Source: an uncultured Actinomycetota bacterium
GTDB taxonomy: Bacteria > Actinomycetota > Aquicultoria > CAYFWW01
Direction of reading: 5' to 3'
Length of the DNA stretch: 64,000 nt
NCBI GenBank assembly: GCA_964346985.1
Contig: CAYFWW010000005.1
Span: forward strand, 17,206-81,205
Shown: in pieces, positions 4,539 through 53,419 of the stretch
Numbering within the stretch: the first letter of the stretch is position 1
Layout: each line of letters opens with the position of its first letter
Notes under the pieces: model-generated
Told to the model about the DNA's origin: nothing
What the model saw: the letters and a program-made list of their open reading frames with translations, nothing else
Databases searched by the model: none
Position numbers and translations under genes: made by a program

Positions 4539-5336
4539 ATGATTGAGACAATTGTATTTTCTATAACAACACTGGCGGGACTTGGTATAACATTTGGCCT
4601 TCTTCTTTCCTATGCCTCAAAAGTCTTTTATGTCGAAATAGATCCGAAGCTTAAAAATCTTGAGGAAGCATTGCCCGGTTTGAACTGTGGGGTCTGCGGT
4701 TACGCCGGATGTAATGATTTTGCTTCTGCTGTTTTGCGAGATGATGCACCAGTGGATGGTTGTAAAGCAGGTGGAATCGAAATTGCCAGGGATGTGGCTG
4801 ATATCATGGGAGTCGAATTGGAAGGGGAAGAAGAAGCTTTGGTGGCTGTAGTAAACTGCACAGGCCGCCAAGACGGTGTCGTTGAAAGATTCATCTATGA
4901 TGGAATTAAAGACTGCAACATTGCAAATTCATTGGCTGGAGGCTCTCTTTTATGCACTTATGGTTGTCTTGGAGGCGGCGATTGCATTAAGGCATGCCCC
5001 TTTGATGCTATTACTTATGGCAAAAATAACTCTATCATTATTGAACAGGATAAATGTGTCGGATGTGGAGGCTGTGTAACAGCATGCTCCCGTAATATTA
5101 TTACCTTGATTCCGGTAGAAAAAAGATTAAGGAATCTTTGTGTCAATAAAGAAAAGGGGAAGCTTGTCAGAAAATCATGTGAAGTCGGATGTATTGCCTG
5201 CAAAGCTTGCCAGAAAGCCTGTGAGGTTGAGGCAATTACAATCGAAGATTTTCTGGCTGTTATTGATTATGAAAAATGTGATGATTGCGGAAAATGTGTA
5301 GAAAAATGCCCAACCAATTGTCTTTTGCTTGTCTAA
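4539..5336 (+). CDS. rnfB: Rnf complex subunit B (N-terminal membrane anchor, Cys-rich FeS domain, several 4Fe-4S ferredoxin motifs)
   Basis: CGVCGYAGC and CKAGG motifs plus multiple CxxCxxCxxxCP ferredoxin repeats. Last gene of the rnf operon. Confidence 0.9.
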   Translation: MIETIVFSITTLAGLGITFGLLLSYASKVFYVEIDPKLKNLEEALPGLNCGVCGYAGCNDFASAVLRDDAPVDGCKAGGIEIARDVADIMGVELEGEEEALVAVVNCTGRQDGVVERFIYDGIKDCNIANSLAGGSLLCTYGCLGGGDCIKACPFDAITYGKNNSIIIEQDKCVGCGGCVTACSRNIITLIPVEKRLRNLCVNKEKGKLVRKSCEVGCIACKACQKACEVEAITIEDFLAVIDYEKCDDCGKCVEKCPTNCLLLV

Positions 5337-19089: not shown

Positions 19090-20001
19090 ATGTATGAACA
19101 GATTGCAGCTAACAAATATAAAACTGGCTTCTTAATGTTTGCCTTTTTCATTTTTATAATAATAATTGGCTGGGTTTTTGCTCAAATTTCAGAATTTGGT
19201 TATTTTGCTCTTTTTATAGCGGTTATTATTGCTATTATTGGAAGTTTCGGAAGTTATTATTACAGCGATAAAATAGTTTTGCGGATGAGTAAAGCTAGGC
19301 CAGTTTCCAGGGATGAACTTCCGTACCTTTATCATATTAATGAGGGTTTGGCTATTGCAGCAGGCATTCCTACCCCTAAAGCTTTTATAATAGATGATAC
19401 AGCCCCCAATGCTTTTGCCACTGGTAGAGATCCGGAGCATGCAGTTATTGCCGTGACCAGTGGATTGCTTGACAAGTTAAACAGGCAGGAGCTGGAGGGA
19501 GTTGTCGCTCATGAAATGTCACATATTAAGAACTTTGACATTAGGTTACAAACAGTTACTGTAGTCATGGTCGGCATAATTGCCTTATTATCAGATTGGA
19601 TGTTAAGGACTTTTTTCTGGGGAGGAAGGCGGAGAAGAGATAGTAGTTCTGGAAATATTGGAGTAATTTTAATAGTCGTTGGGTTAGTTCTAGCAATTTT
19701 ATCACCCATAATTGCTCAATTAATAAGATTGGCTATTTCCAGGAAGAGAGAATATTTAGCTGATGCCAGCGGAGCTATGCTCACTCGTTTTCCAGAAGGC
19801 TTGGCTAATGCACTTTTAAAAATATCAGAAGACAAAGAACCCCTGGAAGTAGCAAACAAGGCTACCAGCCCGCTTTATATAGCAACACCTTTTAATCTGA
19901 GAAAACGCCGCGGTTCTTATCTCTGGGAGACTCACCCGCCAATTAAAGAGCGGGTTGCAAAATTACGCGAGATGTCATTTCAACCGGAAGTACCTTCGTG
20001 A
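19090..20001 (+). CDS. htpX: M48 family zinc metalloprotease HtpX-like
   Basis: HEMSHIKNFD (HExxH) motif and several TM segments. Confidence 0.85.
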   Translation: MYEQIAANKYKTGFLMFAFFIFIIIIGWVFAQISEFGYFALFIAVIIAIIGSFGSYYYSDKIVLRMSKARPVSRDELPYLYHINEGLAIAAGIPTPKAFIIDDTAPNAFATGRDPEHAVIAVTSGLLDKLNRQELEGVVAHEMSHIKNFDIRLQTVTVVMVGIIALLSDWMLRTFFWGGRRRRDSSSGNIGVILIVVGLVLAILSPIIAQLIRLAISRKREYLADASGAMLTRFPEGLANALLKISEDKEPLEVANKATSPLYIATPFNLRKRRGSYLWETHPPIKERVAKLREMSFQPEVPS

Positions 20002-20113
20002 TACGTAATATCAGTGATTATGTAAGCCATTGGCTAACCTTTATGAGCTCTCTGCTGATTTTTGACAATAGCTTTCGACAAAAGAATCCTCCAATTACAT
20101 CCTTAACAGCTTT

Positions 20114-20142
20114 TTGACATTGCCTGATTAACCAAGTATTAT
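20114..20142 (+). promoter_or_regulatory. Near-consensus sigma-A promoter (TTGACA-17-TATTAT) with no downstream ORF
   Basis: TTGACA at 20114-20119, a 17-nt spacer, TATTAT at 20137-20142. No ORF longer than 14 codons lies between here and the terminator at 20333-20368. Confidence 0.45.
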
Positions 20143-20332
20143 GTCAGATATCGTTTTCGATTGGGCCACCGGCCGAAACATAAGGGAGATATTGTGAAAA
20201 TGTGAAAACAGTAGTAATATAGTATTAAACCTTGAGGATCTGATTTTTTAGTACAGCAATATCCTTTTAGAAAACCTCCCTATCCCCAGGTTTATCAAGA
20301 AAGTTTGCAGATTCTCAAGGTTTTATTTTATT

Positions 20333-20368
20333 AAAAAAGAGAGGAATAATTATATCCTCTCTTTTTTA
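20333..20368. terminator. Bidirectional intrinsic terminator between convergent htpX region and the small-membrane-protein pair
   Basis: AAAAAAGAGAGGA-ataattata-TCCTCTCTTTTTT. A perfect GC-containing stem flanked by an A-run and a T-run. Confidence 0.65.
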
Positions 20369-20389
20369 ATATATGTATTATTTTAAAAT

Positions 20390-20725
20390 CTATATTGGCA
20401 TTTTTTTCTTGACCATGAAGTAATAGACAAGAGCTCCAATCCAACTAAGTAAAACAACTATTAAAATCCAAATGATCTTGGTGTTTTCAGAAGGATTAGG
20501 AAACTGGTCATCTTGTCTTTTTATTACATCAACCAGCATAAGAACCCAAAAGACTAAACCAGCTATTGCGATTATAAAGAAAATACCCTGGCAACATAAA
20601 ATGCCGATACCAAAAGTACCACCTATTGCTGTACCTACGGCATCATCTTGAGCAAAGGCCATTCCAGAAAAAAGAAGATGAAGAAAAACAACAGATGATA
20701 ATAATATTTTTTTCAATACTTTCAC
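20390..20725 (-). CDS. Small secreted/membrane protein with a C-terminal PLDc_N (YxlE-like) domain, paralogue 1
   Basis: Signal peptide (…FAQDD), a CC-containing TM segment, then …MLVDVIKRQDDQFPNPSENTKIIWILIVVLLSWIGALVYYFMVKKK. This resembles the B. subtilis YxlE / PLD-nuclease N-terminal domain pattern. Confidence 0.5.
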   Translation of the reverse strand: MKVLKKILLSSVVFLHLLFSGMAFAQDDAVGTAIGGTFGIGILCCQGIFFIIAIAGLVFWVLMLVDVIKRQDDQFPNPSENTKIIWILIVVLLSWIGALVYYFMVKKKMPI

Positions 20726-20805
20726 CTCCCAAAATAAACGGATAAATATTGATATTTCAGAAAACTAAATTATAAAAGACTAATTTTTCAAATATCTAAA
20801 AGATG

Positions 20806-21153
20806 TTAAATTGGCATCTTTTTTTTGACCATGAAGTAATATATTATTGCTGCAAGCCAGTTTAATCCAAGAATCCAGCTAACCAGTAATACAATTAGCC
20901 AAATAGTTTTTGTATTTTCTGAAGCATTAGGAAACTGGTCATTCTCTCTTTTAATACAATCTACTAACATAAATATCCAGAAGACAAATAAGGCTAATAA
21001 TACTATAGCTATTAATCCCAAGCAGCATAGGAAAAATATACCAAGGGTTTCACCAAATGCTTCATCAGAGATATCTTGAGCTAGGGCTGGTGTGGCAATA
21101 AGCAAGGGTATTATAAGAGCAATAATGTAAAGAATTTTTTTCAATACTTTCAC
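20806..21153 (-). CDS. Small secreted/membrane protein with a C-terminal PLDc_N (YxlE-like) domain, paralogue 2
   Basis: Same architecture as 20390-20725: identical first eight residues MKVLKKIL and a conserved DQFPNxSENTK…YYFMVKKKMPI C-terminus. Tandem duplicate. Confidence 0.5.
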   Translation of the reverse strand: MKVLKKILYIIALIIPLLIATPALAQDISDEAFGETLGIFFLCCLGLIAIVLLALFVFWIFMLVDCIKRENDQFPNASENTKTIWLIVLLVSWILGLNWLAAIIYYFMVKKKMPI

Positions 21154-21366
21154 CTCCCATAGTGATCTTTTGGCTATAATAACATAACTAAATATCCTAA
21201 GACAATTTCGTTAATCATAAGTCAATATTATTTATTAATAGACTAATAATATGAAGTAACAATTTCCATAATATTATTTATATAATCAGACTCTATTTTA
21301 TAAATTTTTTATTTTTAAATATTATTTAATACTTTTAATAGAATATTAAATGGTAGAATAATTTAT

Positions 21367-32657: not shown

Positions 32658-32915
32658 ATGGAAAATATAACCGGACTGTTTTTTTATCTAATTTTACTTG
32701 GCGGTCTCTTTTACTTCCTTCTGATTAGGCCACAGCAGATGAGAACAAAAAAGCACCAGGAGCTTGTAAAATCATTAAAAAATGGTGATAAGGTGATGAC
32801 CATTGGTGGGATAATAGGGAGGATCAAGTCAATTGACGAAGAATTAATTAAACTGGAAATTGCTGAAAAAGTAATAATAAAAGTATCCAAGTCTGCTATT
32901 ACAAAAATAATATAA
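32658..32915 (+). CDS. yajC: Preprotein translocase subunit YajC
   Basis: 85 aa, single TM helix, …LKNGDKVMTIGGIIGRI… YajC signature. AGGAGG ribosome-binding site. Confidence 0.85.
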   Translation: MENITGLFFYLILLGGLFYFLLIRPQQMRTKKHQELVKSLKNGDKVMTIGGIIGRIKSIDEELIKLEIAEKVIIKVSKSAITKII

Positions 32916-36258: not shown

Positions 36259-37896
36259 ATGCCCAGAATATTGCCGCGTAGAAAAAAAATCAAAAGACTT
36301 CGTGAAATTACTGAGGTTGCTGCTAGGCATGGTTTAGGTTTTTATCTTGAGAAATTCCAAATAAATAGGATAATAGGCAAATCTCTTGGCAAAGATAGTA
36401 TAAAAATTGAGAAAGTAGAACTGGCTGCCAAAAAGCTACGCTTATTACTCGAGGACCTCGGCCCGACTTATATAAAGATTGGACAATTATTAAGCATAAG
36501 GCCTGATTTAGTACCTCCTGAAGTAATATTCGAACTTGAAAAACTGCAGGATAATGTATCTCCATTTGACTATGAAATAGTAGAAAAGATAATCAAAAAT
36601 GAATTTGAAAAAAATATATCTGATATCTTTTCGAAATTTGAAAAGGTACCGTTAGCTTCTGCTTCAATTGGTCAAGTTCATGAAGCTTATCTACATGACG
36701 GAACTCATGTCGTAGTAAAAATTCAGCGGCCGGAAGCCAGGGAGATCATTACAGCAGATATGGACCTTATTAAAACTGTCGCTCGGTTAATCAAAGCAAG
36801 AATAGAATTTGTCGATATTGAAGGTGTTGTTGATGAGTTTATTAAATCATTAAACCGGGAACTTGATTACCGGACAGAGGCCAAACACATAGACCGTTTT
36901 CGTTTCAATTTTCGTCAGGACGAGCTGGTAAAGATACCCCTAGTCTACTGGCCATATACAAGTAAAAGAGTTTTGACAATGGAATATATCGATGGAACCA
37001 AGATAAGCGACTTGGCTACTCCGGAGGCATTAGGCATAGATACTTTTAAATTAGCGAAGTTTGGCGCAGAAGCCTTTATGAAACAAGTCTTAGTTGACGG
37101 TTTCTTTCACGGTGATCTACATCCGGCAAATCTTTTAATCACACCAGAAGGGAAAATAGGCTATCTGGATTTTGGGATTATCGGAGAGATAAGTGAGAAA
37201 GATAGAGAGTACGTTACCTATCTATTGGCATCGATAATCCGAAAAGACATTGAGGGAGTTGTCAATTATTCAAGGAAGCTGGGAGTTGAAATCGACCAGG
37301 CACAGGTTTCTTCAATTAAAACTGGGTTAAAAAAAATCATTGACAGATATTATGGAAGGGAGCTTGGGGATATAAAAATTGATGTCATTGGTCGAGAATT
37401 TCTAAATTTGATTTACCAAAATAAGATGAAGATACCAAAAAGATTTGCTCTTTTGGCAAAAGCTTTAATCACAGTAGAGGGAGTTGCCCAAGATTTATAC
37501 CCTGGATTCAATGTCATGGAAGTTGCCAAACCTTATGCTCTAAATCTGATAAAAGAAAAATACAGTTTGATGAAAAATCTGGAAGATTTTACAGAACATT
37601 TCTATCAAAATATTTTATTGCTAACTAAATTCCCTGAGCTTATTTATAGTGTTTTAAATAAGATGGAGTCCGGTGAAATTGAATTTATCAGCCAAAATGG
37701 AAGTAGAGCCAGGCAAGTACAAAAGAGTAAAAATATTAGTAATCTCTACCTGACAATTATTACTATTGCTTTTATAATCAGTTCTGCCTTAATAATTTCT
37801 TTTTCGGATTTTTTAGTAATCGGCCTGATTTTTCTTGGGTTTGGAATTTTTGTAATTTTCGTATTAATATTTCAAATTTTAATCGGAAAAGATTGA
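36259..37896 (+). CDS. ABC1/UbiB family atypical protein kinase with C-terminal TM helices
   Basis: ABC1 kinase motifs (ASIGQVHEA, HGDLHPANLL, DFG). Two C-terminal TM helices. Confidence 0.85.
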   Translation: MPRILPRRKKIKRLREITEVAARHGLGFYLEKFQINRIIGKSLGKDSIKIEKVELAAKKLRLLLEDLGPTYIKIGQLLSIRPDLVPPEVIFELEKLQDNVSPFDYEIVEKIIKNEFEKNISDIFSKFEKVPLASASIGQVHEAYLHDGTHVVVKIQRPEAREIITADMDLIKTVARLIKARIEFVDIEGVVDEFIKSLNRELDYRTEAKHIDRFRFNFRQDELVKIPLVYWPYTSKRVLTMEYIDGTKISDLATPEALGIDTFKLAKFGAEAFMKQVLVDGFFHGDLHPANLLITPEGKIGYLDFGIIGEISEKDREYVTYLLASIIRKDIEGVVNYSRKLGVEIDQAQVSSIKTGLKKIIDRYYGRELGDIKIDVIGREFLNLIYQNKMKIPKRFALLAKALITVEGVAQDLYPGFNVMEVAKPYALNLIKEKYSLMKNLEDFTEHFYQNILLLTKFPELIYSVLNKMESGEIEFISQNGSRARQVQKSKNISNLYLTIITIAFIISSALIISFSDFLVIGLIFLGFGIFVIFVLIFQILIGKD

Positions 37897-37955: not shown

Positions 37956-40640
37956 ATGGAGATTAAATTAGAGACAATCTGGGAATATAATGAATACGAC
38001 CATAAGCTCCGGGATGAGCTGTCCAAGCGTCTCGGAGTTTCTTCTTATTTAGCTCAAATATTAAATAATAGGAAGGTAATAGATTATGAATCGGCTTGCA
38101 GCTTTATCAACCCCACTCTTAATAATCTTGAAGACCCATATCTGATTCCTGGAATTGATACCGCAGTTTCCAGGATATATCAGGCAATTAAAAGAAAAGA
38201 AGGAATTTTAATCTATGGTGACTATGATGTTGATGGAATTACTTCTGCGGTTATGCTTGATGATTATCTTCAGCAGAGAGGATGCTTAGTTGATATTTAT
38301 ATACCTTCGCGAGCCGAAGGTTATGGGTTAAACAAGGATACATTAAAAAAATTAGCCGGTAAAGACTTTTCACTTATAATAACTGTCGACTGTGGCACAA
38401 ATAATTATGACGAAATTGATTATGCCAAAAAAATTGGTTTCGATGTTATAGTTACCGACCACCATAATCCCGGGGTAAAAATTCCTAAAGCTATTTCAAT
38501 AGTCAATCCAAAGTTAGGCCAAGAAGAAAATGGCATGAGTGTCCTTTCCGGAGCCGGTGTTGTATTTAAGCTCATCCAGTCTTTGGAAGATGGGAAAATT
38601 CCAGTCCAGTACTTGGACCTAGTCACCTTGGGCACTATTGCTGATGTTGTTCCAATAATAGGTGAGAATAGAAATATCATTGCCGAAGGAGTCAAGCAAT
38701 TTTGTAATACAAAAAGGCCCGGGCTGCAAGCGTTGATTGATGTTTCTGGCTTTAGGGATAAGACAATTCAGGTTGGGCAAATTGCATATGGGCTAGCCCC
38801 CAGGCTTAATGCCAGTGGTAGAATTGATGAGCCATTAGATTCAATAAAACTTCTTAAAGCTATGAATATGAAGGAAGCAATGCCTTTGGCTAAAAGTCTC
38901 GATAAGAAGAACAGAGCTAGGCAAAAACAACAAGAACAGACTTTAGATGAAGCTTTATCAAAGATTAAGCGCGAAATAAACCTTCAGGAAGAAAAAGCTA
39001 TTTTACTGTATGAAGAAGATTGGAATCCTGGCATTATCGGAATTGTTGCCAGTAAACTTGTGGCCAAATTTTACCGTCCGGTAATCCTTTTTACAAAAAA
39101 AGGTATGCTAGCATCAGGTTCAGGAAGAAGTATTGATTCATTTCATTTGCTTGATGCCTTGCAAGATTTAGGAGATTTACTGGAGAATTTCGGTGGCCAT
39201 AAACTAGCTGCTGGATTATCTTTACCATTACAAGGTTTTAGGAATTTTAAGGACAGTTTTTTAAAAATTGCCAATAAGAGAATTTCAGATGACGATCTTA
39301 AACCAAGATTGAATATTGATTTGATTCTTGACCAGTCTGAAGTAACTGAAGACCTTGCTCGAGAAATTAATCTTCTGGCCCCATTTGGAAATGAAAACCC
39401 AAGTCCGGTAATAGTTGTTAAGAATGCCGGTTATCAATCGATAAAAACTTTGAGTAACGGCAAGCATCTCAAGTTTGATTTTCCCACCTTAAACTCTAAT
39501 TTTGAGGTAATTGGATTTAATTATGGTCTATATTTGAATGAATTAAAATCCAGGCAAGATAACCTAAATATAGCCTTCAAAATTGAGAAGAATTATTTTA
39601 AAAGAATTGAAAAATACCAGTTAAAATTGATAGATTTAAAATTTGAGCCAAAATGTAAAGAGACAGCAAGTTTCATAAATAATTTATACAGCCGAGCTAA
39701 AGAGTTTAAAATTGAAACAAGATATTTAAAATATTCTGATTGCTTAAGTTTTAAAAATAAAGAAGACAGTACAAGCTCCGACAATCTAAACTCAGATTCG
39801 AAGAAAAGTGATCTTAGTATCCCCAGGAATATCCGCCTTTTTGATAAACGAAATATAAAATCTAAGAATAATTATTTGAAAGTATCAATAAAAAGAGGCG
39901 GAAAATCTTTAATATTATCAAACAAGCCTGATAAATGTGTAGAACTGGCAAATTTTTTAAGAAAAGAGATTATTTATAAAGAAAACGAGATTGCTTTCTA
40001 TCACAGTGGTTTAAATAAGGCAGATCGCATACAAATATGGCAATTGTTTCGGGATTCAAAAATAGACACTCTTATCTCGACTTATTCATTTATGGAGAAT
40101 ATAAGTATTTTGGATATAAGGAGTTTATATCTATATGATTTACCATTTAATTATAGTTCATTAAAAAAAGTGACAAGCATAGTCGGGCTGGACAACCAAT
40201 TGACTTATATTCACATTCTATTTGGTAAAGGTGATATATTGGAAAATGACCTTATGCTGGAATCAATTTCACCTTCAAGAAAAAGTTTAGCGATTGTTTA
40301 TAGATCCTTAAGAGAATTGGCAGAAAATAATATTATTTTTCACGGTTCAAGAAGAGAAATTCTTGACCATTGCCAAAAGAATTCAAGGTTTAATTTGTTA
40401 GACAAAACTTTTCAAAATAGCTTATTGATTCTTGAAGAGTCTGGCTTAATCAAATTAGAGGATAATAGGGAAAAAATATGGATTGAATTAAAACCTGAAC
40501 CCGATAAAAAAATTGACTTGAATATTTCTTCTAGATATCTAGAGGGAGAAAAAAAACGAGAAGAGTTTTCAGATTTCAAGAAATGGATATTCAATACTGA
40601 ACAGTCTAAATTATTAGCTGCTTTTTACAGCTCTAAATAG
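37956..40640 (+). CDS. recJ: Single-stranded-DNA-specific exonuclease RecJ with a roughly 300-aa C-terminal extension
   Basis: DHH motifs (ITVDCGT, VTDHHNPG) and a DHHA1 domain (…LENFGGHKLAAG…). The C-terminal third resembles a degenerate helicase-C (RecA-like domain 2) fold: …IAFYHSGLNKADRIQIWQLFRDSKIDTLISTYSFMENISILDIRSLYLYDLP…. Confidence 0.85.
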   Translation: MEIKLETIWEYNEYDHKLRDELSKRLGVSSYLAQILNNRKVIDYESACSFINPTLNNLEDPYLIPGIDTAVSRIYQAIKRKEGILIYGDYDVDGITSAVMLDDYLQQRGCLVDIYIPSRAEGYGLNKDTLKKLAGKDFSLIITVDCGTNNYDEIDYAKKIGFDVIVTDHHNPGVKIPKAISIVNPKLGQEENGMSVLSGAGVVFKLIQSLEDGKIPVQYLDLVTLGTIADVVPIIGENRNIIAEGVKQFCNTKRPGLQALIDVSGFRDKTIQVGQIAYGLAPRLNASGRIDEPLDSIKLLKAMNMKEAMPLAKSLDKKNRARQKQQEQTLDEALSKIKREINLQEEKAILLYEEDWNPGIIGIVASKLVAKFYRPVILFTKKGMLASGSGRSIDSFHLLDALQDLGDLLENFGGHKLAAGLSLPLQGFRNFKDSFLKIANKRISDDDLKPRLNIDLILDQSEVTEDLAREINLLAPFGNENPSPVIVVKNAGYQSIKTLSNGKHLKFDFPTLNSNFEVIGFNYGLYLNELKSRQDNLNIAFKIEKNYFKRIEKYQLKLIDLKFEPKCKETASFINNLYSRAKEFKIETRYLKYSDCLSFKNKEDSTSSDNLNSDSKKSDLSIPRNIRLFDKRNIKSKNNYLKVSIKRGGKSLILSNKPDKCVELANFLRKEIIYKENEIAFYHSGLNKADRIQIWQLFRDSKIDTLISTYSFMENISILDIRSLYLYDLPFNYSSLKKVTSIVGLDNQLTYIHILFGKGDILENDLMLESISPSRKSLAIVYRSLRELAENNIIFHGSRREILDHCQKNSRFNLLDKTFQNSLLILEESGLIKLEDNREKIWIELKPEPDKKIDLNISSRYLEGEKKREEFSDFKKWIFNTEQSKLLAAFYSSK

Positions 40641-45371: not shown

Positions 45372-47133
45372 AAATTCACAAAAGACTCATTATTGCAAAC
45401 AATTGAACAGGGATAATATTGACGAGGAAGTTATTTTAGCCGGATGGGTAAATAAGCGTAGAGATCATGGAGGATTGATCTTTGTTGACTTAAGAGATAG
45501 GTCTGGTTTAGTTCAGTTAGTGATAAGCCCGGATGAAAATCCGGAAGCATTTAAGGTTGCCGAAAAAGTTAGAAATGAATTTGTGCTTAAAGTACAGGGA
45601 AAAGTAAGGCACAGACCAAAAGGAACAGTAAACCCCGATTTAGAAACCGGCGAGATTGAAGTTTTTATTGAAAAACTGGAAATTCTTAATTCTTCGCTTA
45701 CTCCTCCGTTCGAGATTGAAGACGAAGTTTCGGTTGATGAAAAAATCCGTTTGAAATATCGTTATCTTGATCTGAGAAGGCCGGTTATGGCCGAATCGAT
45801 TATGTTTAGACATCAGGTAACTGGAAAAGTTAGGCAGTTTTTAGATAGAAATGATTTTATCGAAGTAGAAACACCGATATTAACTAAGAGTACACCTGAA
45901 GGTGCTAGAGATTATCTGGTTCCTTCAAGGATAAGCCAAGGCCATTTTTATGCGTTACCCCAGTCTCCGCAACTTTTCAAGCAGCTTTTGATGATAGCTG
46001 GGTTGGAGCGTTATTACCAAATTGCAAGATGCTTTAGGGACGAAGACTTGAGGGCCGACAGGCAACCGGAGCATACCCAGGTGGATATAGAAATGTCATT
46101 TATCGAGTGCGATGACTTATTAGCATTAGTCGAAGAAATGATTAAAGATATTTTTTCTTTAATAAAGGTTGAAATAGACTTACCTTTTCCAAGATTAACA
46201 TACGATCAAGCTATGTTAAATTATGGATCTGATAAGCCAGATTTGAGATATGAATTAGAAATTAATGATGTCACAGATATTTTTGACAAGACTGCTTTTA
46301 AAGTTTTTTCAGGTGTCATTGAGAAAGATGGCGTTATCAGGGCACTTGTGGTTCCGGGAGGTATATCTTTTACCAGAAAAAAGTTAGATGAATTGATCGA
46401 AACTTCGAAGGAATTTGGAGCAGGCGGTTTAGTCTGGCTTCAGCTAAAAAACCAACAAGATATTAAATCACCAGTAGCAAAATATTTATCTGAACAAGAA
46501 GTTAGGCAGTTAATAGAACAAACAAAGGCAAATTCCGGAGACCTGATTTTAATAGTTGCTGACCAAGAAAGAATTGCGGCTGAGGCATTAGGTGGATTAA
46601 GATCAAATTTAGCAGGTGATTTGAAATTAATAAAAGAAGATTCTTTTAACATGAGTTGGATATTAGATTTTCCACTTTTTGAATATGACACTGAAGAAAA
46701 AAGATATAAATCAAATCATCACCCTTTTACCAGGCCAACTGAAGATACCTTAGCTTTTCTGGAAAAAGACCCGCTTAAAGTAAAAGCCTATGCTTATGAT
46801 TTGATATTAAACGGAGTTGAAATTGGTGGAGGAAGTTTGCGTATTCACAATCAAGATCTCCAAAGAAAGATATTTAAAATTCTAGGCATTGAAGCCAAGG
46901 AAGCTGAATCCAAGTTTGGTTTTTTATTGGAAGCGTTGAAATATGGTGCACCACCTCACGGGGGGATAGCTTTTGGTCTTGATAGAATGATAATGGTTAT
47001 GACCAGAAAAAAATCAATTCGGGATGTTATTGCTTTCCCGAAAACACAAGCTGCAGCTTGTTTATTAACAAAAGCACCAAACTTAGTTAAGCCCGAGCAA
47101 CTTAAAGAGTTGCATTTGCGATTAAGAAAGTAA
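45355..47133 (+). CDS. aspS: Aspartate--tRNA ligase
   Basis: 592 aa. OB-fold anticodon-binding N-terminus, class II motifs (QLFKQLLM, GGGSLRIH). Confidence 0.95.
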   Translation: MKERIKNSQKTHYCKQLNRDNIDEEVILAGWVNKRRDHGGLIFVDLRDRSGLVQLVISPDENPEAFKVAEKVRNEFVLKVQGKVRHRPKGTVNPDLETGEIEVFIEKLEILNSSLTPPFEIEDEVSVDEKIRLKYRYLDLRRPVMAESIMFRHQVTGKVRQFLDRNDFIEVETPILTKSTPEGARDYLVPSRISQGHFYALPQSPQLFKQLLMIAGLERYYQIARCFRDEDLRADRQPEHTQVDIEMSFIECDDLLALVEEMIKDIFSLIKVEIDLPFPRLTYDQAMLNYGSDKPDLRYELEINDVTDIFDKTAFKVFSGVIEKDGVIRALVVPGGISFTRKKLDELIETSKEFGAGGLVWLQLKNQQDIKSPVAKYLSEQEVRQLIEQTKANSGDLILIVADQERIAAEALGGLRSNLAGDLKLIKEDSFNMSWILDFPLFEYDTEEKRYKSNHHPFTRPTEDTLAFLEKDPLKVKAYAYDLILNGVEIGGGSLRIHNQDLQRKIFKILGIEAKEAESKFGFLLEALKYGAPPHGGIAFGLDRMIMVMTRKKSIRDVIAFPKTQAAACLLTKAPNLVKPEQLKELHLRLRK

Positions 47134-47134
47134 A

Positions 47135-47163
47135 TTGAATGGCTTTTTCTTGTGTGCTACAAT
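47135..47163 (+). promoter_or_regulatory. Sigma-A-type promoter TTGAAT-17-(TG)cTACAAT for the downstream structured RNA
   Basis: TTGAAT at 47135-47140, a 17-nt spacer, an extended TG, then TACAAT at 47158-47163. The predicted start of transcription (~47170) coincides with the 5' end of the RNA's closing stem. Confidence 0.45.
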
Positions 47164-47169
47164 CAAAAA

Positions 47170-47347
47170 AAAGCTCTGCCTTGTACGTGAGCATTTGTGA
47201 TTGTGTGAGCCAACACATTCACAAAGGGAACTTAGCTCTATTAGCAGCTTGGATGCCAGATAATGGAACCAAAAAGTTAGTAGGAAAGTACCCACCTGAA
47301 CAAACAGGGTTCAACAATGTGATATGTCCACGGCAAGGCGGGGCTTG
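47170..47347 (+). ncRNA. ssrS: Candidate 6S RNA (SsrS/BsrA-like), about 180 nt
   Basis: 12-bp terminal stem: 47172-47183 AGCTCTGCCTTG pairs with 47334-47345 CAAGGCGGGGCT (two G-U pairs). Further interrupted helices lie inward. Own promoter. Position directly downstream of aspS matches B. subtilis 6S-1 (bsrA, aspS-yrvM intergenic region). The overlapping 69-codon ORF is Cys-rich and has no ribosome-binding site. Confidence 0.45.
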
Positions 47348-47366
47348 ACTCTGAAAGGAGATAAAC

Positions 47367-49686: not shown

Positions 49687-50805
49687 ATGGCAACAACAAA
49701 AAAACCCTCAAGTAAAAATTTTGATAATATTCTTATCTGGCAAAGAAGAATTTGGTTTCTGGTTGGCACCTTAATCCTGATTATCGTTTTATTTTATCTT
49801 TTGAATTTCTTAAAACCTGTAATCACACCTTTTGTCTATGCATTGGCCATAGTCTATATTCTTAAACCGATTGTTGATTTTTTTCAAGATAAAGGAATTC
49901 CTCGGATATTTGCTGTCATTTTAGCCTATTTATTATTCATTTTTATTGTTTCTCTATTCTTAATCTATATTATTCCGATAATTATTGATCAATTTCGAGG
50001 TTTGATTTCATCAATTCCAACTTATATTGAACTAATTGAAAAAAAGGCTCTACTTTATTTAAAAGAAATTGGTAAGATGCATTTACCCTTTGACCTAAAG
50101 AAATTACTAGCGGATTTATTGGATAGGTTAAAAGAGCCCGGGCTAGCTTTTTTTGGACGTATACCCGGATATACAGCTAATGTTGTATCTAGCTTTTTTA
50201 ATATTGTAATCGCTCCGATTTTAGCTTTTTATATATTGAAGGATTATGAACAAATTAGGTTGAATATCCGTAATTTAATACCCATGCGTTACCGAGAAGA
50301 AGTAACTACTGGTATTACCAAGATTGATGAGGTTATTTCAAATTACTTAAAAGGCCAGATTTTTGTTGCCTTAATAGTCGGTTTTCTTATGACTATTGGA
50401 CTTTATATACTGGGAATCGATTATGCATTGATAATAGGAATGATTGGCGGTATTGCTAATATTGTTCCTTATTTAGGCCCTATAATAGGGGCAATACCAG
50501 CTATAATAATCGCCTTTTTTGAGAAGCCTATTTTAGCTTTATGGGTAATAATAGTAATGATAATTATTCAACAAGTTGACAGTTTTCTTATTTCACCTAA
50601 TATTATGAAAAAGCAAATGGACTTACACCCGGCTTTAATAGTCTTCGCTCTTATGGTAGGCGGAATAATTTGGGGAATTCTCGGAATGCTCCTAGCTATT
50701 CCAATAACGGCAGCCGGAAAAGCTGTTATGATGTACTACATAGAAAAATCTCCTTATTATCAGGAGGATAATATAAAAGATGAAACACCAGGAGATAAGA
50801 GATAA
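49687..50805 (+). CDS. AI-2E family transporter (UPF0118)
   Basis: 372 aa, eight TM helices, AI-2E-type topology. GGAGG ribosome-binding site. Confidence 0.8.
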   Translation: MATTKKPSSKNFDNILIWQRRIWFLVGTLILIIVLFYLLNFLKPVITPFVYALAIVYILKPIVDFFQDKGIPRIFAVILAYLLFIFIVSLFLIYIIPIIIDQFRGLISSIPTYIELIEKKALLYLKEIGKMHLPFDLKKLLADLLDRLKEPGLAFFGRIPGYTANVVSSFFNIVIAPILAFYILKDYEQIRLNIRNLIPMRYREEVTTGITKIDEVISNYLKGQIFVALIVGFLMTIGLYILGIDYALIIGMIGGIANIVPYLGPIIGAIPAIIIAFFEKPILALWVIIVMIIIQQVDSFLISPNIMKKQMDLHPALIVFALMVGGIIWGILGMLLAIPITAAGKAVMMYYIEKSPYYQEDNIKDETPGDKR

Positions 50806-53419
50806 TTTTTTATCATTTTTTAAAAAAAGAGATCATACTATAGTAAAAAGTTCTTCTTTGATACCCAATGATCCAACAATGCTCCTGACAGGTGCGGGCA
50901 TGGTTCAGTTTAAACCGATTTTTTTGGGTAACCAAAAAGCTGATTATAATAGAGCTGCTTCTGCTCAAAAATGTGTTAGGACTACTGACATTGATAACGT
51001 TGGTAAAACCGCTAGGCATCTAACTTTTTTTGAAATGCTTGGTAATTTTTCATTTGGGGATTATTTTAAAGAAAAAGCTATTCCTTGGTGCTGGGAATTG
51101 CTTGTGGATGAATATAAACTTGATCCAGAAAAACTTTGGATAACTATTTATAATGATGACGATGAAGCTGCTGAAATATGGCAGAATGAAGCTGGAATTT
51201 CCTCAAATAAGATAGTCCGCCTTGGTGAAGATGATAATTTTTGGGCAGCCGGACCAACCGGTCCTTGCGGGCCTTGCTCAGAAATAATTTTTGACTTTGG
51301 GAAAGAGCGGGCGTGCAGTTCAAATTGTAGTGTTGGTTGTGATTGTGATCGATTTTTAGAAGTCTGGAATTTAGTATTTATGCAGTACGACCGGGACGAA
51401 AACGGTAAATTAAATCCATTGCCGAAAAAAGGAATAGATACCGGAATGGGATTAGAAAGGCTTGCTTCGCTTCTCCAGAATTCAAACACAAATTTTGAGA
51501 CAGATATTATATGGCCTTTAATAGAAAATTTGGTTGAATTATCTGGCCAAGAGTATGAAAAAGAGGATAAATATAAAACCTCAATGAGGATAATTGCTGA
51601 TCATTCTAGAGCTATAACGTTTTTAATTGGAGACGGAGTTATTCCCACAAACGATGGCAGAGGGTATATTTTAAGGAGGCTTCTCAGGAGAACAATTAGA
51701 CACGGAAAGATTATAGGAGTTGATAAGCCTTTTCTTAAAACTATGGTTGAAACTGTGATGGAATCAATGGGTTCTGTCTATCCTGAAATAATTGAGAATA
51801 AAGATTTTATTCTTAAGATAGTACAGAGCGAAGAAGAGCGCTTTAATCAAACATTACGCCAGGGCTTAAGGTTAATAGAAAAAAATATATCTGAATTAGC
51901 TAAAGAAAATAAGAAAGAATTATCTGGTGAAACGGCATTTAAACTGTATGATACTTATGGTTTTCCACTAGAACTTACTGAAGAGATAGCTTCTGAAAGT
52001 GGACTAAAAATTAAAAAAGAAGAATATGAGAAATTGATGGAAAAGCAGAGAAAAACAGGTAGATCGGCCTGGCAAGAATCAGGCTGGGAAGTTAAAGAGA
52101 AACTATACTCAGATTTAGCGAAAAAACTACCCAAGTCTGAGTTTAGTGGTTATGAAGAAGAAGAGACGCAAACAAAAATTTATGCGATTATCAAAAATGG
52201 AAAGCTATGTGATCAACTTAAGAAAAATGATGAGGGTGAAATCGTTTTAGAAAAAACTCCTTTTTATGCAGAAAAAGGAGGTCAAATTGCTGATAAAGGA
52301 TTAATTAAGACCGAGTCTGGGGAATTCGAGGTTTTAGATACTCAAGAGCAAATAGAGGGATTGATCCTACATATGGGTAGAGTAACCAAAGGCAGTATTG
52401 AAAAAACAAATTCTGCTAAAGCCATAATTGAAATTAGACGCAGGCAATTAATTGCCAGAAATCATACGGCAACACATTTATTGCATTGGGCATTGAGATT
52501 AGTTCTTGGTTCTCATGTAAAGCAAGCTGGTTCTTTTGTCGGGCACGATCATCTGCGTTTTGACTTTTCACATTTTCAAGCTATGAATGATGATGAGATA
52601 AAAAAAGTCGAAAATCTTGTTAACCAGAAGATTATTGAAAACCACCCAGTGAGATGTTTTATTACTACTCAAGACTATGCACGTGATATAGGAGCAATTG
52701 CCCTGTTTGGCGAGAAGTATGATGAATATGTCAGAGTTGTTGAATCTGGAAATTTTCATAAGGAGTTATGTGGCGGAACTCACGTTGTTTCAACAGGGGT
52801 TATAGGATTATTTAAAATTTCCTCTGAAACTTCTATTGGGTCTAACTTAAGAAGAATTGAAGCGGTCACATCTCGAAAAGCCATTGAAATTATAAACGAT
52901 AAAGAAAATATAATTAAGAAAATTGAATCTAGACTTGAAACCAATCTAGAACAAATTCCTGAAAAAATTGATTCTTTAGTGGATGAATTAAAAGATACAA
53001 AACAAAAGATTAGTAAAATGCAATCAAAGCAGATAAAGGATGATTTAAGTAAATTATTGAAAGATATTGTGGAAATAAACGGTTACAAGGTTGTGGTGGC
53101 CAAAATAGATGCTTCGGATATGGAAGAATTAAGGTATTATACTGATTTAATCAGAGATGAAACTAAAAGCTGCGTGGTTTTACTTGGCTCGATTACCAAT
53201 GGTAAAGTTCTACTAATTGCTGCAGCAACAAAGGATATAGCCGGTAAAGGCTTCAGCTCTAAAGAATTGATACAAAATGTTGCCCCGCTTGTCGGCGGTG
53301 GAGGCGGAGGCAAGAATGACCTTGCTCAAGCTGGTGGACGAAAAATTGAGAAAATAGATGAAGCTCTTTCGAAAGGGAAAGAATATATTATTGAATTTTT
53401 TACCGGTGATGATAATTGA
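50780..53419 (+). CDS. alaS: Alanine--tRNA ligase
   Basis: 879 aa. MKHQEIRDNFLSFFKKRDH… N-terminus, editing-domain HxxxH/CxxxH zinc motifs, and a C-terminal DHHA1 (GGGGG) region. Confidence 0.95.
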   Translation: MKHQEIRDNFLSFFKKRDHTIVKSSSLIPNDPTMLLTGAGMVQFKPIFLGNQKADYNRAASAQKCVRTTDIDNVGKTARHLTFFEMLGNFSFGDYFKEKAIPWCWELLVDEYKLDPEKLWITIYNDDDEAAEIWQNEAGISSNKIVRLGEDDNFWAAGPTGPCGPCSEIIFDFGKERACSSNCSVGCDCDRFLEVWNLVFMQYDRDENGKLNPLPKKGIDTGMGLERLASLLQNSNTNFETDIIWPLIENLVELSGQEYEKEDKYKTSMRIIADHSRAITFLIGDGVIPTNDGRGYILRRLLRRTIRHGKIIGVDKPFLKTMVETVMESMGSVYPEIIENKDFILKIVQSEEERFNQTLRQGLRLIEKNISELAKENKKELSGETAFKLYDTYGFPLELTEEIASESGLKIKKEEYEKLMEKQRKTGRSAWQESGWEVKEKLYSDLAKKLPKSEFSGYEEEETQTKIYAIIKNGKLCDQLKKNDEGEIVLEKTPFYAEKGGQIADKGLIKTESGEFEVLDTQEQIEGLILHMGRVTKGSIEKTNSAKAIIEIRRRQLIARNHTATHLLHWALRLVLGSHVKQAGSFVGHDHLRFDFSHFQAMNDDEIKKVENLVNQKIIENHPVRCFITTQDYARDIGAIALFGEKYDEYVRVVESGNFHKELCGGTHVVSTGVIGLFKISSETSIGSNLRRIEAVTSRKAIEIINDKENIIKKIESRLETNLEQIPEKIDSLVDELKDTKQKISKMQSKQIKDDLSKLLKDIVEINGYKVVVAKIDASDMEELRYYTDLIRDETKSCVVLLGSITNGKVLLIAAATKDIAGKGFSSKELIQNVAPLVGGGGGGKNDLAQAGGRKIEKIDEALSKGKEYIIEFFTGDDN

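Follow-up and report, generated by a model that had tools for sequence, protein, structure and literature searches.

A conserved, structured non-coding element in the htpX 3' region of a deep-branching uncultured bacterium, a candidate small RNA with a C-rich loop proposed as anti-Shine-Dalgarno

Behind htpX in an uncultured Actinomycetota bacterium, within a 64,000-nt stretch of contig CAYFWW010000005.1 (hereafter the window, meaning the whole stretch that was analysed), sequence comparison identifies a conserved, structured non-coding element at 20189-20335, which is followed by a convergent pair of genes for small membrane proteins. An earlier reading of the letters by a model (the sequence-only reading) had proposed a non-coding RNA gene of ~220 nt at this place, running from a TTGACA-17-TATTAT promoter at 20114-20142 to an intrinsic terminator at 20333-20368. 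A non-coding RNA gene 3' of htpX is supported by conservation, structure and the lack of an open-reading frame (ORF), the boundaries and promoter of the proposed unit are not, and the RNA that we predict is shorter and has a different promoter. The comparison set consisted of two distinct sequences: that of the window, shared by a near-identical conspecific strain (locus L095, protein P0121, otherwise ~99% identical to the window, which sets the background divergence at ~1%) and by locus L094, and that of a sister species (locus L081, protein P0002, metagenome-assembled genome (MAG) GCA_964346885.1, with an HtpX 85% identical), shared by locus L092. The features of the locus are:

20192-20223, + strand: conserved proximal promoter block, with a -35 TTGTGA at 20192-20197, a 17-nt spacer and a -10 TAATAT at 20215-20220
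20227-20323, + strand: conserved hairpin RNA of ~97 nt (folding, RNAalifold, blastn against L081, identity in L095)
20227-20242 with 20308-20323, + strand: helix P1, a basal helix of 15-16 bp
20264-20268 with 20299-20303, + strand: helix P2a
20274-20277 with 20288-20291, + strand: helix P2b
20278-20287, + strand: apical C-rich loop CCCUAUCCCC, proposed as an anti-Shine-Dalgarno (anti-SD) seed
20324-20332, + strand: U-rich tract immediately 3' of P1; the window has UUAUUUUAU, L081 UUUUUUUAUUU
20333-20367, both strands: strong bidirectional intrinsic terminator (sequence, energy, comparison with L095)
20114-20142, + strand: distal promoter-like site, TTGACA (20114-20119)-17-TATTAT (20137-20142), 11/12 match
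20143-20191, + strand: non-conserved 5' extension of the transcript proposed earlier, with a small GC hairpin and AAGGGAG
19090-20001, + strand: htpX, membrane protease of the M48 zinc metalloprotease type (ORF list; Pfam PF01435 on its homologues)
20390-20725, - strand: PLDc_N/DUF2516 small membrane protein, convergent neighbour (Pfam PF13396 and PF10724; ORF list)
20806-21153, - strand: second, tandem PLDc_N/DUF2516 paralogue

Coding regions of the window and the sister species match at 67-80% identity (blastn), and 20189-20332 is the sole wholly non-coding match between the two (to L081 5218-5358; 73% over 147 nt, E = 1e-13); elsewhere in the htpX-downstream gap, the distal promoter and 20143-20188 included, blastn aligns nothing to L081. 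The sequence-only reading had pointed to 20150-20330 as the interval whose conservation should be checked; the part from 20189 onwards aligns, the 5' ~50 nt (20143-20191) does not. Against the conspecific strain, 20196-20337 carries no difference in 142 nt, and the adjacent 20002-20195 carries 22 in 194 nt (11%, against the ~1% background), so that the left edge of conservation coincides (20189-20196) in the two comparisons. The element occupies the same locus in both species and is single-copy, no second copy or paralogue being found in the window or in 97 loci by blastn-short and motif scans.

Relatives are few. In a collection of 5.8 billion proteins HtpX has one conspecific match (P0121), one at 85% (P0002) and nothing else above 69%, whilst in an HtpX search of genome contigs the top match reached 66% (Aminicenantes-labelled MAGs) and none of 80 loci had the conserved core; the more distant loci L082, L083, L096 and L097, which have the order rhomboid-LemA-HtpX and a GC content of 42-47%, lack the element. 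A metagenome scan with the invariant 18-mer described below returned 11 contigs, two of them real (L092, the same as L081, and L094, the same as the window); the other nine were rejected as chance matches, with GC contents of 46-67%. No homologue was found in these searches outside this deep-branching low-GC lineage. The alanyl-tRNA synthetase (AlaRS) of the window (50780-53419) has its nearest non-self match at 56% identity and matches by name MAGs of deep Actinomycetota, Bacillota and Atribacteria, while Aminicenantes is the label on the HtpX neighbours; host GC is ~34%. Given such sparse HtpX and AlaRS relatives, the host is taken to be a deep-branching uncultured bacterium from a very poorly sampled group.

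P1 forms in the separate folds of both species, and on a two-species alignment made by hand and checked in Python (MAFFT placed the 3' side of P1 one base out of register) RNAalifold returns P1, P2a and P2b with a consensus energy of -21.45 kcal/mol. Among 25 aligned pairs there are three compensatory double changes (at the foot of P1 A-U becomes G-C, within P1 A-U becomes U·G, and in P2a U-A becomes A-U), one one-sided change (U·G to U-A), one indel and no broken pair; the sequence variation falls mostly in internal-loop segments, and a conserved U run (20243-20249) stands right after the 5' strand of P1. That only 20189-20332 aligns, with an 18/18 core, argues for selection on the sequence, and all 25 aligned pairs are kept. 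The strand is indicated by the G·U pairs in P1 and P2a, which become A·C mismatches on the - strand, and by the folding z-scores, -3.2 and -3.8 on the + strand and -1.6 and -2.7 on the - strand; as the G·U pairs fit the + strand only, and promoter and U tract are also on that strand, we read the RNA as + strand.

The apical loop lies within an invariant 18-mer (ACCTCCCTATCCCCAGGT/ACCUCCCUAUCCCCAGGU, 20274-20291) that is 18/18 identical in both species. Its AUCCCC part is predicted to be unpaired with a probability of at least 0.99 in both species, also in the longer isoform that the distal promoter would give, and its 5' CCCU part with at least 0.98 in the window and about 0.4-0.9 in L081. On the 5' side the loop is flanked by ACCU in the window and AUCACCU in L081, where the resulting stretch AUCACCUCC is what we take to be a match to the anti-SD tail of 16S rRNA. 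No other intergenic + strand [CT]CCC...[CT]CCC motif occurs in the window, and in a literature search the loop sequence CCCUAUCCCC appeared in no relevant paper.

The proximal promoter block directly precedes the hairpin. In the window TATAGT (20218-20223) overlaps the -10, and the promoter scan gives GTGAAA-18-TATAGT, 9/12; the L081 counterpart is TTGTGA (5221-5226)-17-TATAAT (5244-5249) with a TG before the -10 (TGtTATAAT), which amounts to 10/12 with an extended -10 besides; its end lies 7 nt 5' of the hairpin's first base. The two blocks align gap-free, a single difference (at 20195) separates the window from L095, and the predicted transcription start is ~20227-20230. Two exact tandem copies of TGTGAAAA (20193-20208) make up the -35 region, where L081 has TGTGAATT-TGTGAAAC; none of the neighbouring promoters (lemA-htpX, pldN, fpg) contains TGTGAA in either species, and matches to the 16-mer repeat with up to three mismatches are no commoner in the sequence than in shuffles. 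The Rex operator is an inverted repeat of the TTGTGAA...TTCACAA type; the TTGTGAA here recalls a Rex half-site but is a direct tandem repeat with no TTCACAA partner, and we make no claim for Rex. A full-length 6S (SsrS) RNA gene is present elsewhere in the window (47170-47348, + strand; 98.6 bits, E = 1.4e-18; promoter ~47126-47161); its 3' end abuts the Shine-Dalgarno sequence (SD) of the following ORF (47367), and no terminator is obvious. As this gene stands behind TTGAAT-17-TGcTACAAT, sigma-70-type signals are meaningful in the window organism.

At the 3' side of the hairpin, P1 runs directly into the U tract in both species, and in a scan of L081 4700-6000 this was the sole terminator-like signal. 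In the window it is followed by a canonical terminator composed of A6 (20333-20338), GAGAGGA (20339-20345), a 9-nt loop (20346-20354), TCCTCTC (20355-20361) and T6 (20362-20367), with a predicted energy of -14.7 kcal/mol (-15.6 in L095). Across 20338-20372 there are nine differences from L095, nearly all in the loop, with the stems intact. We judge the strong terminator named by the sequence-only reading to be real; the terminator scan overlooked it only because its loop limit was 8 nt. Its stem is followed by a T/U run whichever strand is read, so that the convergent PLDc_N gene can use it as well, in agreement with the earlier suggestion that it is shared with the convergent pair, and on the + strand it can presumably end both the sRNA and any read-through from htpX. 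The scan found no terminator-like site between 20001 and 20333 in the window, nor between htpX and the element in L081, and therefore the element is also part of the htpX 3' untranslated region (3' UTR).

This arrangement raises an alternative that we regard as unlikely, though as the most probable of the rivals, that the element is a cis-acting part of the htpX mRNA 3' end (a terminator, stabiliser or processing signal) with no function in trans, the upstream promoter being incidental AT-rich DNA. It would lie on the htpX strand, 225 nt (window) or ~430 nt (L081) past the gene with no terminator predicted between, and the U tract after P1 in both species, the only such signal in L081, is what an intrinsic terminator would have. 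However, it would be rare for a terminator to keep an unpaired loop region at 18/18, or an upstream -35/-10 block of identical spacing, amid unalignable intergenic DNA, and a 97-nt hairpin of three helices with an invariant loop far exceeds termination needs; the true terminator at 20333-20367 shows the opposite pattern, keeping its stems whilst its loop varies in L095. A canonical terminator 10 nt further on would also make a second one redundant in the window, and the more distant htpX loci of the same gene order are without the element.

The distal promoter is present as the sequence-only reading described it (11/12), but three sites of at least 11/12 occur on the two strands of the whole window, one of them inside a gene, and dinucleotide shuffles yield 2.7 ± 1.7. 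Another, CTGACA-17-TATAAT (37750-37778), lies just 5' of a RecJ-type gene (37956-40640, + strand) whose 894-aa protein carries RecJ domains (DHH, DHHA1, RecJ_OB) and a C-terminal Helicase_C. With a count equal to chance expectation, the match at 20114 is weak evidence by itself; the earlier argument that promoter and terminator are both too good for chance therefore holds for the terminator, with its intact stems in L095, and fails for the promoter. In L095 the distal -35 reads TTGATA, and an alignment of the htpX-downstream gap gives the site no counterpart in L081. The small GC hairpin at ~20160-20178 is broken by substitutions in L095. Also as described earlier, AAGGGAG (20181-20187) is followed by GTG-AAA-ATG-TGA.

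It is doubtful, on these grounds, that the ~220-nt RNA from the promoter at 20114 to the terminator at 20333-20367 is the functional transcript. Its promoter lies in an intergenic gap and still scores 10/12 in L095, it could compensate for a proximal promoter that is weaker in the window species, and a long RNA would fold with the conserved hairpin and open loop intact. Yet neither the promoter nor 20143-20191 has a counterpart in the sister species, 11/12 sites are as common as chance predicts, the promoter and the 5' region fall in a within-species divergence hotspot and evolve faster than any other DNA nearby, and the small hairpin there is not kept between strains; at most the long form would be an extra, strain-specific isoform of the conserved RNA. 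The distal site is specific to the window species or strain, in which it may drive the longer isoform.

Two further explanations fare worse. A protein-binding or DNA-level element, either a - strand RNA whose loop GGGGAUAGGG would offer GGA to a CsrA-like protein or a palindrome bound by a regulator, is very improbable. The element is indeed an imperfect inverted repeat at the DNA level (self-matches), the - strand loop holds two GGA motifs, and in L081 a - strand promoter-like site of 10/12 lies ~165 nt upstream in that orientation. The - strand, however, has A·C mismatches at the G·U positions and the weaker z-scores, its approach is blocked in the window by the bidirectional terminator, and it would present a single loop where known CsrA sponges carry many, whilst a DNA palindrome leaves unexplained why P2a and P2b are conserved with a compensatory change. 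Least probable of all, by our assessment, is a remnant or active 5' leader (attenuator) of a gene lost in the window organism, as the sequence-only reading had also entertained: a hairpin with a U tract could act as an attenuator and in L081 a 113-aa CxxC ORF follows the element on the + strand, but that ORF begins ~200 nt past the U tract beyond another large inverted repeat, the anti-SD loop is too distant to sequester its weak ribosome-binding site, no riboswitch or leader family in Rfam matches the element, the block is equally well kept in the species without the ORF, and nothing downstream is common to both species, each of which has a U tract or terminator at the end of the element. The ORF itself (L081 5563-5904) has three CxxC pairs, no Pfam match and no counterpart in the window, and the inverted repeat, long and imperfect, lies at L081 5360-5480 between the element and the PLDc_N gene (AGTGACTTGTGACT...AGTCAAAGTCACT, TTAGTAACTAAT...ATTAGTTAC) and is likewise absent from the window.

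The element does not appear to encode a protein or to belong to a described RNA family. The longest ORF between distal promoter and terminator has 14 codons on the + strand (TTG at 20161), in line with the limit of 14 codons given by the sequence-only reading, and 16 on the - strand. A small protein was rejected as an explanation, there being no ORF of at least 20 aa in the block and none of the micro-ORFs (14 codons on +, 16 on -) being common to both species; the L081 ORFs in the element region, 35 aa (+) and 31 aa (-), have no window counterpart. The search of Rfam that had been recommended yielded no family match for the element: at the gathering thresholds of Rfam 15 the whole window contains only the 6S RNA, and a cmscan of 19950-20450 against 4227 Rfam 15 families at E ≤ 10 gave matches far below the gathering thresholds, centred on the terminator hairpin. 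No transfer RNA or transfer-messenger RNA genes were found. The attC sites of integrons have the core sites RYYYAAC and GTTRRRY and lie next to cassettes; an attC site was rejected here, as the ends ATTAAAC/ATTGAAC and GTTTTAT/GTTCTTT do not fit these cores. A miniature inverted-repeat transposable element or a repetitive extragenic palindrome was likewise rejected: there is one copy, and the two species have it at the same locus.

Taken together, we favour at roughly even odds (a probability of about 0.5) the reading that a gene for a small non-coding RNA lies at 20192-20335 (+ strand), within the htpX 3' region, and that its RNA acts in trans and is of the UCCC/C-rich anti-SD type; in functional terms the element would most likely be an ordinary regulatory sRNA that pairs with ribosome-binding sites. 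From the observed conservation, structure, strand, lack of an ORF and sequence signals we infer its transcription, its action in trans, its targets and a link to stress as follows. The proximal promoter would start transcription at the foot of the hairpin, ~20227-20230, and the transcript would end either at the U tract after P1 (~105 nt) or at the 20333-20367 terminator (~140 nt). The 16-bp basal helix, with a variable internal region above it, would carry a short apical stem that displays the invariant unpaired loop CCCUAUCCCC, and this C-rich loop could pair in trans with G-rich SD regions (GGGAGG, GGGG) and block translation initiation, in the manner of the UCCC/C-rich sRNAs from low-GC Gram-positive bacteria. 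With no terminator after htpX, the RNA may also arise from htpX read-through, which would make it a 3'UTR-type sRNA that also has a promoter of its own, and such an origin would tie its level to the membrane-stress expression of htpX.

Several points weigh against this sRNA reading. The proximal promoter scores just 8-9/12 in the window, transcription start and 3' end are both predictions from sequence, and P1 directly before a run of U's also fits a conserved htpX terminator. The lack of differences from L095 is uninformative alone, given the background of ~1% and another intergenic region that likewise shows none, and with only two distinct sequences, the three compensatory changes are suggestive without amounting to statistical proof. 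Nor does the target search discriminate. An anti-SD seed complements nearly every strong SD, which makes target prediction in 64 kb non-specific, and when the loop was compared by RNAduplex with every 30-nt window on both strands of the 64 kb, start sites were not over-represented among the top matches. The best extended site, at 32794-32823 (+ strand; GGGAUAAUAGGGAGG), lies inside yajC (32658-32915) and would form 9 bp, a 3-nt bulge and 3 bp (-23.9 kcal/mol), yet it encodes the peptide IGGIIGRI and is within chance expectation among 42,648 windows; the SD of the PLDc_N genes, GGGAGGUG, complements the flank of the loop, as any strong SD would.

A more specific version of the same sRNA reading would make the RNA the non-coding part of a response for membrane-protein quality control, in which a mimic of the anti-SD tail (AUCACCUCC in L081), encoded 3' of htpX, lowers the translation of membrane or secretory proteins with strong SDs upon htpX induction. 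We consider this speculative and rather improbable. Its candidate targets could be the adjacent PLDc_N proteins (SD GGGAGGUG) and yajC, and by analogy it would be a functional counterpart of CpxQ, independently evolved. For the sRNA reading as a whole there is precedent in that 3'UTR sRNAs exist within envelope-stress regulons, for example CpxQ from cpxP (PMC4817254).

The PLDc_N genes show several features of their own. The start given by the ORF finder for both is a GTG within the SD (20714-20730 and 21142-21160, - strand). For the first gene a likelier start is the TTG at 20716, 6 nt past GGGAGGTG (20730-20723), which gives a signal-peptide-like N-terminus MKKILL...; the sequence GGGAGGTGAAA(A/G)TATTG at this start is also kept in L081. 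The comparison of L095 with the window has two divergence hotspots, the htpX-downstream gap at 20002-20195 (11%) and the second paralogue (15%; 53 differences in 348 nt, against one in 336 nt in the first). The pattern suggests recombination imports, or diversifying selection on one of the two small membrane proteins.

The candidate is a credible sRNA of a mechanistically familiar kind, and it belongs to no described family. The UCCC loop motif is considered characteristic of low-GC sRNAs that bind the SD and block translation initiation (PMC4132741), and RoxS uses C-rich regions (PMC5419742). With the C-rich-loop sRNAs (RsaE/RoxS, LhrC1-5, RNAIII hairpins, SprD, FsrA) the predicted RNA shares a length of ~100 nt, its own promoter, a U-tract 3' end, a host GC of ~34%, and UCCC and UCCCC within CCUCCCUAUCCCC in an unpaired, SD-complementary loop; it differs in its lack of an Rfam match, in a 16-bp basal helix around the whole RNA, in being single-copy and in a host outside the Bacillales. 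In particular, the cmscan of 19950-20450 gave no match to RsaE (RF01820); RoxS has four separate C-rich regions where there is one loop here with two adjacent C runs (CCUCCCUAUCCCC), and LhrC of Listeria is multicopy with three UCCC sites, in contrast to the single copy and single C-rich loop found here, which again has no Rfam match. As in the anti-SD (UCCC) class generally, the element is non-coding, has a promoter and a terminator of its own by predicted signals, and in the predicted folds leaves its C-rich motif unpaired in a conserved structure.

Two types of sRNA from mRNA 3' regions also resemble it. Type I 3'UTR sRNAs (MicL, DapZ) are alike in strand, lack of an intervening terminator, shared 3' end and internal promoter, all predicted here from htpX and its surroundings. 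CpxQ, from cpxP, is alike in that the element too lies on the same strand 3' of a protein-coding gene, here one for membrane-protein quality control, and shares the 3' end of its mRNA; but CpxQ is cut from the cpxP mRNA by RNase E, Hfq-dependent and enterobacterial, whereas the RNA behind htpX has its own predicted promoter and no sequence relationship to it.

For a probe, a deletion or a covariance model the corrected boundaries are 20192-20335 and not 20114-20368. The position behind htpX makes a link to membrane stress a testable hypothesis. If transcribed, the RNA would be among the very few sRNA candidates from a deep-branching uncultured lineage that come with both structural and comparative evidence, and if the sRNA reading is true, an SD-pairing C-rich loop, best known from the Bacillales, would recur far outside that group.

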